A program made the position numbers and the translations under genes. The notes under the pieces were generated by a model, which had not been told where the DNA came from, searched no databases, and saw only the letters and a program-made list of their open reading frames with translations. Shown piece after piece: positions 9,967-11,352 of a DNA stretch of 36,338 bases. Within the stretch, counting starts at the first letter, position 1. Each line of letters starts with the position of its first letter. The stretch lies in contig JBDRJK010000012.1 of the NCBI GenBank assembly GCA_043814985.1, forward strand, positions 1 through 36,338, given 5' to 3'. Source of the DNA: Candidatus Aenigmatarchaeota archaeon (GTDB lineage Archaea > Aenigmatarchaeota > Aenigmatarchaeia > Aenigmatarchaeales > Aenigmatarchaeaceae).

Positions 9967-10063
9967 TAAATTTCTTAAACAATGGATTCATATTCTTAAT
10001 AGATAGCCCCGTCGTCTAGTGGTCAAGGACAATGGCCTCTGGAGCCGTAAACGGAGGTTCGAA

Positions 10064-10477
10064 AGATTTATAAGGAGGTATGTTCCTCTTTAAGTCATGA
10101 ATATAAGAACAGCTGGTTTGATAATATGGAAATGTGAAGGAACTAAGAGGGGAAATAAAAGAATGGTTGAAATGTGTAATTCAGATGATTGGATAATTTC
10201 CACCTTTATGAAGTTTCTAATCAAAGAGATGAAAGTTCCAAAAGGAAAGATTAGATTAAGAATATTCCTTCATAAAGACGATGTTGAAAATGAAGCAAAA
10301 AAACATTGGAAAAAAATTACAAACCTAAAAGCAAAAAACTTTACAAAAACGATGTGGAAAAAAAGAGGAAAGTGGAATAAAAAGAAACTCCTCTTTGGAA
10401 CTTTAGTCATAAGAGTACATGATAAAAATCTTTTTAATAAAATAAAAGAGGAAGCTAAAACCTTATAAATCCGAATA
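10064..10477 (+). mobile_element. protein-coding BHB tRNA intron (candidate homing intron)
   Basis: BHB: T-stem, central helix TTCG(10058-61)/CGAA(10472-75), bulges AAA(10062-64) and TAT(10476-78), 11-bp perfect intron helix GATTTATAAGG(10065-75)/CCTTATAAATC(10461-71). Confidence 0.9.
10097..10468 (+). CDS. intron-encoded single-motif LAGLIDADG-like putative homing endonuclease
   Basis: N-terminal helix TAGLIIWKCEGTK (LAGLIDADG-like, acidic E retained), CNSD..II..F..FL, W..IT and GTLVIRV strands; very basic; lies wholly inside the intron. Confidence 0.78.
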   Translation: MNIRTAGLIIWKCEGTKRGNKRMVEMCNSDDWIISTFMKFLIKEMKVPKGKIRLRIFLHKDDVENEAKKHWKKITNLKAKNFTKTMWKKRGKWNKKKLLFGTLVIRVHDKNLFNKIKEEAKTL

Positions 10478-10524
10478 TCCTCCCGGGGCTACTTTTTATT
10501 AATAAAAAAAGCTATTTCTCATAC

Positions 10525-11352
10525 ATGTGGATTGTCAAGGCTTCAGGAGAGACAGAGAAATTTGATATTAGAAAAATCAAAAGAACCTGTTTAAAGTCCG
10601 GGACTTCTAGGAACCTGGCAAACAAGATAGCCAATGAAGTTAAGAAAAAAACTTACAGTGGAATGTCAACAAGGCAAATCCTGCAGATGACCTTGAAACT
10701 TCTTGGAAAACAGAAACCCTTTATCGCAGCAAGGTACGACCTGAAGGGGTCACTGTTCAGGCTGGGACCGGCAGGCTTTGCCTTTGAGAGGTTCATTGCT
10801 GAAATACTGAAGGATAATGGTTTCAAGACAAAGTTGGATACGATGAACAAAGGGTTCTGCGTTGATCACGAGATAGACATAATCGCAACATTGAAAAACA
10901 GGAACTACATGATAGAGTGCAAGTATCACAACCTTCCCGGTATCTACACAGGATTAAGGGAGGCCCTGTACACGTATGCAAGGTTCTTGGATTTGAAAAG
11001 CGGATCAAAGAAGGGATTGTGCAAGGACTTTGATCAGCCTTGGCTTATCTGCAACACCAGATTCTCCGAGGATGCTGTCAAGTACTCAAAATGCGCGGGC
11101 TTGAATCTGGTTGGGTGGGACTACCCAAAGAAAAAGGGCTTGAAGGACCTTATGGAAAAAAACAAGCTTTACCCAATAACCATGATAAGGAATCTTGACA
11201 AGTTCTCCCAGGAAAAGCTGTCAATAGCGGGCTTAGTCTTAATAAAAGACCTTACTGAATTATCTATTAAGGAACTGCACAAGATCACAAAGATTCCCGT
11301 AAAGAAATTAAAAACACTTGTCAACGAGGCAGAGAGGATAACATATGGTTGA
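10525..11352 (+). CDS. ATP-cone plus Mrr-like (PD-(D/E)xK) restriction endonuclease domain protein
   Basis: N-terminal IVKASGETEKFD..KI (ATP cone); GFAFERFIAEIL, HEIDIIA and MIECKYH. Confidence 0.85.
   Translation: MWIVKASGETEKFDIRKIKRTCLKSGTSRNLANKIANEVKKKTYSGMSTRQILQMTLKLLGKQKPFIAARYDLKGSLFRLGPAGFAFERFIAEILKDNGFKTKLDTMNKGFCVDHEIDIIATLKNRNYMIECKYHNLPGIYTGLREALYTYARFLDLKSGSKKGLCKDFDQPWLICNTRFSEDAVKYSKCAGLNLVGWDYPKKKGLKDLMEKNKLYPITMIRNLDKFSQEKLSIAGLVLIKDLTELSIKELHKITKIPVKKLKTLVNEAERITYG

Follow-up and report, generated by a model that had tools for sequence, protein, structure and literature searches.

A bulge-helix-bulge intron in the T-loop of an archaeal tRNA-Gln(CUG) gene, filled by a divergent LAGLIDADG-like reading frame

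We analyzed a 36,338-nt stretch of DNA from a Candidatus Aenigmatarchaeota archaeon (positions 1–36,338 of contig JBDRJK010000012.1, assembly GCA_043814985.1; hereafter, the window), in which the only tRNA-Gln(CUG) gene that we found in this genome is split within its T-loop by an insert that folds as a bulge-helix-bulge (BHB) intron and contains one long open reading frame (ORF). Our preferred reading, to which we assign a probability of roughly 0.55, is that this is a mobile-type intron, filled by a divergent single-domain LAGLIDADG-type endonuclease gene, that homes into tRNA-Gln(CUG). Homing fits the combination of an endonuclease-type and probably dimeric protein, a T-loop BHB intron, and empty alleles nearby. 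More interesting than the homing site itself is the wider pattern: an unnamed LAGLIDADG-like family located at bacterial and archaeal tRNA genes, alongside T-loop introns that lack an ORF.

A T-loop intron in the tRNA-Gln(CUG) gene

ARAGORN reported no tRNA gene in the unspliced window, Rfam at its gathering score gave no match to the split tRNA-Gln gene there, and the whole-genome scan with the tRNA model returned only a 16.9-bit partial match at 10014–10069. When 10064–10477 was removed in silico, ARAGORN recovered a cloverleaf tRNA-Gln(ctg) with acceptor strands AGCCCCG and CGGGGCT, an anticodon loop of CTCTGGA, and discriminator A. Across the junction the letters run GGAGG (10053–57), TTCGAA (10058–63), the intron (10064–10477), T (10478), and CCTCC (10479–83); because the intron starts with A, the DNA-level junction could equally be placed at 58/59 with the same spliced product. 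The interval 10053–10483, given as the extent of the element in an earlier reading of the window made from sequence alone (hereafter, the sequence-only reading), corresponds to the T-stem 5′ strand through the T-stem 3′ strand. The one further tRNA-Gln signal in this 91%-complete assembly is a UUG isoacceptor on contig C13, and the interrupted gene is therefore the sole CUG copy seen. Standard tRNA finders miss it, which leaves an annotation gap: tRNA-Gln(CUG) would be counted as absent from the genome.

A custom scanner for strict hBHBh′ geometry (outer helix h, bulge, central helix H, bulge, closing helix h′), applied to the precursor, gave one strong solution, with an h of 5 bp, an H of 4 bp, 3-nt bulges, and an h′ of 11 bp (Table 1). 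The unconstrained minimum-free-energy (MFE) fold of 10005–10491 contained the identical motif at −118.6 kcal/mol, with a z of −4.98 and none of 100 shuffles as stable. Cleavage of BHB motifs falls after the second bulge base. The pre-tRNA can thus fold into a strict hBHBh′ motif, and the insert has the hallmarks of an archaeal BHB intron. The proposal of the sequence-only reading that the T-arm forms half of the splice motif was confirmed: the T-stem provides h and TTCG provides half of H, while the intron adds an A, the closing helix, and CGAA-TA. The genome also encodes the expected processing enzymes, with one gene for the EndA catalytic domain (PF01974, 97.6 bits, C1:47369–47650) and the ligase RtcB (575.8 bits, C19:62448–63752).

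Across this genome, ARAGORN called 30 tRNAs; the Rfam model put 35 above its cut-off. Introns are present in many of them, and several were mis-called for that reason, such as tRNA-Gln(UUG), which appeared as "tRNA-Stop(tta)".

Uninterrupted alleles in related genomes

By comparing the locus with 42 genomes of the order using BLAST, and running ARAGORN on the matching loci, we found uninterrupted tRNA-Gln(ctg) genes in five genomes (G011, G004, G002, G037, and G017). One of these, G011, belongs to the same genus and, like the window, has a DJ-1/PfpI gene upstream; in G002, the T-arm and the 3′ acceptor strand of tRNA-Gln(CTG) are identical to those of the window. The intron itself had no match in the other genomes of the order. 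The intron-less alleles that a homing site calls for are therefore present in relatives, one of them with an identical T-arm, and because these five relatives lack the intron, its gain appears to have been recent. As judged from these sequence comparisons, the intron has the sporadic distribution, with empty alleles in close relatives, by which mobile introns are recognized.

Other insertions occur in the same gene. The tRNA-Gln(CTG) of G012, a genome of the same genus, has an insertion of ~31 nt in its D-arm (L032, G012:C4), and that of G301, from another family, combines a D-region insertion with a 47-nt T-loop intron (L202, G301:C17). This tRNA gene seems to gather non-canonical introns. 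A homologue of the window ORF in G012 was considered as an intron ORF and rejected, since it is a separate gene ~160 nt downstream of a tRNA-Ser.

The intron-encoded protein

The ORF almost fills the intron, with its final codons inside the closing helix. A word-based homologue search with it returned only itself; an exhaustive HMMER search at E ≤ 1e-3 returned 612 representatives, of which 20 reached E ≤ 1e-10, and the closest (P0013) is a 54-aa fragment with 66% identity. Short forms of the family (~115–145 aa) consist of the domain alone, and longer forms add an N-terminal helix-turn-helix (HTH) domain of the HTH_23/HTH_28 type. A profile of 43 short forms (A1) matched a single solved structure, I-DmoI (E 1.3e-4), with the profile segment lYwcEGtK..NsD aligned on the second I-DmoI motif, GLYVAEGDK..NKN. 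The N-terminal motif helix ends in an acidic residue and a glycine, and E14-G15 match the E-G of that motif. Across the 43 sequences, conservation is at least 90% at E14, G15, N28, and F82 and complete at W71; the window ORF is full length (profile positions 3–129 of 132) and retains E14, G15, K17, and N28. A homologue from a tRNA-Asp intron (L162) reached 21.0 bits on the Pfam model LAGLIDADG_3, below the cut-off of 22.5, and one ESM Atlas structural-neighbour cluster bears the name LAGLIDADG protein.

AlphaFold2 (AF2), given the homologue alignment, predicted an alpha-beta-beta-alpha-beta-beta-alpha order plus one extra helix, with a predicted local distance difference test score (pLDDT) of 94.8; a single-sequence model, with a pLDDT of 48.6, was discarded. 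In VIA-align, which does not depend on Foldseek, the top match of the predicted fold was the endonuclease domain of the TliVMA intein (Z 7.4, root-mean-square deviation (rmsd) 2.6, 76 residues aligned), followed by I-DmoI (Z 6.6, rmsd 3.0, 81 aligned) and then by WhiA, E-DreI, I-Tsp061I, PI-PfuI, I-MsoI, I-Vdi141I, I-CeuI, and I-CreI; beyond the first two, about ten LAGLIDADG entries stood in the top 43 rows. These Z-scores are middling, yet the predicted fold and the sequence profile agree.

A two-copy prediction gave an interaction score (ipSAE) of 0.67 against 0.02 for the best control, in a predicted model that, since solved LAGLIDADG dimers exist, may partly reflect likeness to them rather than binding; among proteins solved as pairs, 20 of 30 attained the ipSAE mark, and among those solved as single chains, 1 of 23 did so. 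The dimer runs agreed in at least 89% of contacts, with a partner pLDDT of at least 86, and the predicted symmetric interface comprises residues 1–14 and 28–36, with 9–9 and 13–13 contacts on helix 1. The sequence-only reading had taken the ORF for a single-motif LAGLIDADG enzyme that acts as a homodimer. The profile match to I-DmoI, the AF2 fold, the VIA-align matches, and the near-cut-off score of L162 bear out the first part, and the symmetric dimer predicted through the motif helix agrees with the second. We class the intron protein as LAGLIDADG-like, single-domain, and probably dimeric.

The surroundings of the ORF have several other features. A GGAGGT at 10074–79 repeats the T-stem and T54 letters of 10053–58, and a 6-codon mini-ORF (10080–10100) ends in ATGA and overlaps the start codon of the endonuclease-type ORF, an overlap that may reflect translational coupling or chance. 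Immediately downstream of the tRNA lies a gene (10525–11352, forward strand) whose product combines an ATP-cone with an Mrr-type restriction-endonuclease domain and, at its C-terminus, an AF1548-like domain. The intron ORF's domain recurs in this genome as a distant second copy (L068, C11:61364–61744, reverse strand), which lies within a 409-aa frame that has an N-terminal TrmB-type HTH and is not near a tRNA.

T-loop introns without an ORF

In the genome G292, a tRNA-Ala gene has a 39-nt intron at 59/60 with the design TTCA AA^A ... TGAA TA^T and no ORF. A pattern built on this design, which fixes the bulge letters and is therefore silent on T-loop introns whose letters differ, matched 58 times, in 54 of the phylum's 371 genomes, and we examined all of the matches. 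A 5-bp T-stem spanned the insert in nine of the 58, where chance, at (6/16)^5 for each match, would give ~0.4; the other 49, which had no T-stem, were rejected as chance matches. In-silico splicing followed by ARAGORN or manual reading assigned tRNA identities to most of the nine (Table 1), and the inserts of G216 and G325 yielded no identity after splicing. In total, nine genomes have ORF-less T-loop introns, which span at least five tRNA identities. One of them lies at the exact site of the window intron. The sequences support the view that a T-loop becomes spliceable with the addition of only an A, a helix, and YGAA-TA. Introns of this design are also present in several tRNA isotypes, albeit with no ORF inside them.

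Table 1. Features of the split tRNA-Gln(CUG) gene in the window and ORF-less T-loop introns in other genomes of the phylum. A caret marks a splice site.
Feature	Location	Strand	Basis
tRNA-Gln(CUG) gene, A1 to discriminator A73, split	10005..10491	+	ARAGORN after in-silico intron removal; hand numbering
5′ exon, tRNA positions 1–59	10005..10063	+	BLAST matches to relatives' tRNA-Gln genes end at 10063
Outer helix h: T-stem GGAGG (5′ strand; pairs with CCTCC)	10053..10057	+	Fold and scanner
Central helix H, 5′ strand TTCG (T54–G57)	10058..10061	+	Fold and scanner
Bulge 1, AA^A; 5′ splice site after 10063	10062..10064	+	Fold and scanner
BHB intron, 414 nt, tRNA position 59/60	10064..10477	+	In-silico splicing, fold, motif scan
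Closing helix h′, 5′ strand GATTTATAAGG	10065..10075	+	Perfect 11-bp helix in scanner and MFE fold
Intron ORF, 123 aa, single-domain LAGLIDADG-like, motif GLIIWKCEG, E14	10097..10468	+	ORF list, homologues, I-DmoI profile match, AF2
Closing helix h′, 3′ strand CCTTATAAATC, overlapping the ORF's last codons and stop	10461..10471	+	Scanner, ORF list
Central helix H, 3′ strand CGAA, supplied by the intron	10472..10475	+	Fold and scanner
Bulge 2, TA^T; 3′ splice site after 10477	10476..10478	+	Fold and scanner
3′ exon: T60, T-stem CCTCC (10479–83), acceptor CGGGGCT (10484–90), A73	10478..10491	+	Sequence reading, ARAGORN
tRNA-Gln(CUG), 47-nt ORF-less intron at the exact window site, core TTCG AA^A ... 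CGAA TA^T	G301 (another family)
tRNA-Leu(CAA), ORF-less 59/60 intron	G187, G188
tRNA-Ala(UGC), ORF-less 59/60 intron	G298, G292
tRNA-Arg(CCU), ORF-less 59/60 intron	G314
tRNA-Leu(CAG), ORF-less 59/60 intron	G322

Genomic context of homologues

We examined where homologues of the intron ORF reside. In the 371 genomes of the phylum (the phylum search being the same as the class set), 22 had a match; apart from the window there are eight short-form loci, six of them within or abutting a tRNA gene, and none of the 15 long-form loci (at least 222 aa) is near one. A second set of 74 loci (L070–L143), drawn from species genomes of many phyla and representing the subgroup with the motif [ML]YWCEG[ST]K, had a tRNA within ~210 nt in 71 cases and within 100 nt in 69. 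At 12 of 13 metagenome loci (L144–L156) a tRNA stands directly beside the frame, downstream by at most 10 nt or overlapping in 11 and overlapping the frame start in one (L146). The bacterial genes (~205–250 aa), from Patescibacteria, Gammaproteobacteria, and actinomycetes including Micromonospora, combine an HTH with the domain. They sit immediately upstream of tRNA-Ser(GCU), tRNA-Trp, or tRNA-Gln(UUG), in the orientation of that tRNA, and their frames often end within the first 10 bases of the tRNA; 15 actinomycete loci, mostly from Micromonospora, precede tRNA-Gln(TTG). Genes from Nitrososphaerota (131–146 aa) are found ~90 nt from a divergent tRNA, mostly tRNA-Gly(CCC).

Three homologues are themselves borne by strict BHB introns, all at the canonical position 37/38: those of G088 (471 nt) and G292 (435 nt), both in tRNA-Ala(UGC), and that of G443 (567 nt) in tRNA-Asp(GUC). 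The last comes from a Nitrososphaerota-centred sample of 401 genomes, of which four had a match. The G292 copy lacks the N-terminal motif region (positions 26–113 of the hidden Markov model only), and its host gene (L051, G292:C21, reverse strand) holds both the 435-nt intron at 37/38 and the 39-nt intron at 59/60 described above. BHB scans around 11 short-form loci, from Nitrososphaerota and elsewhere, found no intron, and a pattern derived from alignment A3 gave 84 matches in metagenome contigs, none of which was confirmed. Of 112 homologue loci other than the window, these three are intron-borne, none is in a T-loop, and most of the rest abut tRNA genes. The expectation that homologues would be found at the T-loops of varied isotypes was therefore not borne out; as read from these contexts, the family is strongly linked to tRNA genes and not to T-loops.

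Two loci have repeats of tRNA sequence. At L046 (G112:C18, ~1040–1660), a 144-aa homologue follows a complete tRNA-Ile(GAU), and past the ORF lies a degenerate direct repeat of the last 17 bases of that tRNA, with three differences; the repeat has the look of a scar left by insertion into the 3′ part of that tRNA. In L143 (1300–1960, Nitrososphaerota), the ORF sits between a tRNA-Gly(CCC) and a 46-nt direct repeat, 91% identical, of the tRNA's 5′ part.

Proposed homing and alternative explanations

We infer that the intron protein dimerizes through its N-terminal motif helix, which would place two E14 residues at one active centre, and that the dimer cuts uninterrupted tRNA-Gln(CUG) DNA at or beside the T-loop; repair from an intron-bearing copy would then install the intron. 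Because it must span the junction, the recognition site would include T-arm DNA, and it probably extends into tRNA-Gln-specific flanks rather than being a generic symmetric T-arm.

Several observations weigh against this reading. The ORF had no match in Pfam, NCBIfam, or PHROGs, which is why we file it as LAGLIDADG-like rather than under a named Pfam family; a Foldseek search of its predicted fold against the PDB, in which OmpA-like rows ranked first, returned nothing at E ≤ 0.001; and all of the VIA-align Z-scores were below 8, in a range that the tool itself terms common. Since the family is found mostly beside tRNA genes and often with an N-terminal HTH, a DNA-binding role other than that of a nuclease is possible. 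Contigs of three other public runs, from two studies, contain the identical intron-bearing allele, unchanged across the 5′ junction, and showed no clean intron-less joint, so that these runs give no sign of ongoing homing. One contig joined 10027 to 10485 (side 23, 4 other letters); we rejected this candidate as most likely derived from another organism's tRNA.

An unlikely alternative is that the ORF is no longer, or never was, an active homing nuclease and is instead a remnant in decay, a helper in splicing, or a protein that binds tRNA genes, with the intron now inherited vertically. In its favour are the uniform allele, the many HTH-fused members fixed upstream of tRNA genes, which look like stable residence, and the G292 intron copy, which lacks the motif region. 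The window ORF, however, is complete and has kept its conserved motif residues, and the five relatives without the intron imply a recent gain.

The sequence-only reading had gone further than homing into tRNA-Gln(CUG): a homodimer would read the T-arm as a symmetric pseudo-palindrome, so that any similar T-arm would be a target and the element could spread between isotypes. We consider this stronger form quite improbable. The junction, GGAGG-TTCGAA^T-CCTCC, has the letters that were claimed for it, but the DNA of any T-arm hairpin is an inverted repeat and the near-palindrome is therefore nothing beyond what tRNA architecture provides. LAGLIDADG enzymes leave 4-nt 3′ overhangs, cutting around an axis that lies between base pairs. 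In the spliced 33-mer, an axis through G57 gives symmetry at 7 of 16 positions (6 of 8 within the T-arm), and the axis between C56 and G57 that a LAGLIDADG dimer would use gives it at only 5 of 16, three of those five being TTCGAA; the low value arises because the 7-nt loop puts the stem halves one base pair out of register.

Spread to other tRNAs with the same T-loop is not supported either. The T-arm list of the window's genome includes nine other tRNA-like T-arms with a TTCGAAT loop, all intact, and the genome has a single T-loop intron. None of the nine has the GGAGG/CCTCC stem, and the closest, in tRNA-Gln(UUG) (GTAGG TTCGAAT CCTAC, CGGGGCTA), differs by one stem pair and has an equal 3′ acceptor strand. 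The absence of T-loops among the 112 homologue loci points the same way. For the stronger form speak the predicted homodimer and the ORF-less 59/60 introns, which share their intron-supplied letters across nine genomes and at least five tRNA identities. So does the position of insertion: TTCGAA is a perfect 6-bp palindrome with the insertion point (58/59 or, equally, 59/60) 2–3 bp from its centre, and a perfect 10-bp palindrome, CCTTGCAAGG, is present in the tRNA-Ala(UGC) targets of two homologues, again with the insertion 2–3 bp from the centre. The loop of the tRNA-Asp target, CTGTCAA, has no palindrome centred between base pairs. Insertion near the centre of a palindrome, with only two or three independent cases, is a lead.

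About equally doubtful is the possibility that the endonuclease gene invaded an older, short T-loop intron, with the ORF-less intron allele as its original target. The 47-nt intron of G301 shares the site and core of the window intron, eight more ORF-less T-loop introns exist in the phylum, and the tRNA-Ala of G292 shows that an ORF-bearing 37/38 intron and a short T-loop intron can occupy one gene. Yet the closing helices of the window and G301 introns are alike only in CGAATA, the ORF and helix fill the window intron with no spare intron sequence, five relatives in the order have no intron at the site, and loss of the ORF from a homing intron would yield an equal pattern.

The intron might instead have moved as RNA, with the splicing endonuclease and ligase running in reverse, reverse transcription following, and the ORF as a passenger. 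This reading draws on the transplantability of BHB motifs and on the mechanism of tRNA intron transposition being called unknown in the available portion of one review (PMC4090602), but it is very improbable, because DNA homing accounts better for the presence of such an ORF; no reverse transcriptase link turned up, and none was searched for.

Comparison with known systems

The nearest precedents for the window intron are the archaeal rRNA BHB introns that encode I-DmoI, I-Tsp061I, and I-Vdi141I, which are likewise excised by the tRNA splicing endonuclease and nearly filled by a LAGLIDADG-type ORF; I-DmoI is also among the best sequence and fold matches of the window ORF. The window intron differs in its host, a tRNA, and in its site, a T-loop, and its protein has one 123-aa domain rather than two and falls outside the Pfam LAGLIDADG models. 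According to the parts of PMC4496867 available to us, many archaeal rRNA introns encode LAGLIDADG enzymes, and there, as in the corresponding parts of PMC6125680, LAGLIDADG genes are attributed to rRNA BHB introns and group I introns. Our literature search turned up no endonuclease ORF in an archaeal tRNA intron, only in rRNA introns, although an earlier publication is possible, and it turned up no free-standing LAGLIDADG gene beside tRNA genes.

Position 59/60 is listed among the known non-canonical positions of archaeal tRNA introns in the available text of PMC4090602, and the window intron shares this position and the BHB logic with such introns, including the nine short examples from the phylum. 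Non-canonical tRNA introns are short and ORF-less, whereas that of the window is 414 nt long and has an endonuclease-type gene.

The group I intron enzymes I-CreI, I-MsoI, and I-CeuI resemble the window protein in having one motif per chain, a symmetric dimer (predicted for the window protein), and a related fold (Z 4.3–4.9). Their carriers are self-splicing, in contrast to the protein-spliced BHB intron; the similarity of the window ORF goes undetected by Pfam, and its candidate target has weak symmetry at the expected axis. I-Ssp6803I, the homing endonuclease of a bacterial group I intron in the anticodon loop of tRNA-fMet, offers a parallel as an endonuclease-bearing intron that targets a tRNA gene, but differs in intron type, in nuclease fold, and in using the anticodon loop rather than the T-loop. 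WhiA, a DNA-binding regulator with duplicated, inactive LAGLIDADG domains and a C-terminal HTH, matched the predicted fold with Z-scores of 5.9, 5.5, and 5.4 and recalls the long family members that also have an HTH; members of the window ORF family that have an HTH carry it at the N-terminus, and the family conserves the acidic residue.

Implications

As far as the accessible text of PMC4090602 states, archaeal introns have moved between tRNA genes by a mechanism described as unknown, and PMC4033280, in the part at hand, calls for snapshots of tRNA intron insertion events. An intact endonuclease-type gene in a tRNA BHB intron, together with empty sister alleles and ORF-less copies in the phylum, is such a snapshot, and it makes tRNA intron mobility a question that can be put to the test with a single protein and a handful of DNA substrates. 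The search also exposed a large unnamed protein family of 612 representatives tied to tRNA genes. We offer, tentatively and as an unlikely generalization, that this unannotated LAGLIDADG-like family specializes on tRNA genes in both prokaryotic domains: in archaea it would reside inside BHB introns at 59/60 and 37/38, where loss of the ORF would leave short non-canonical introns and the family would drive the gain and transposition of tRNA introns, and in bacteria, which are unable to splice BHB introns, it would be parked against the 5′ ends of tRNA genes. The window intron may thereby help to explain how archaeal tRNA introns move.

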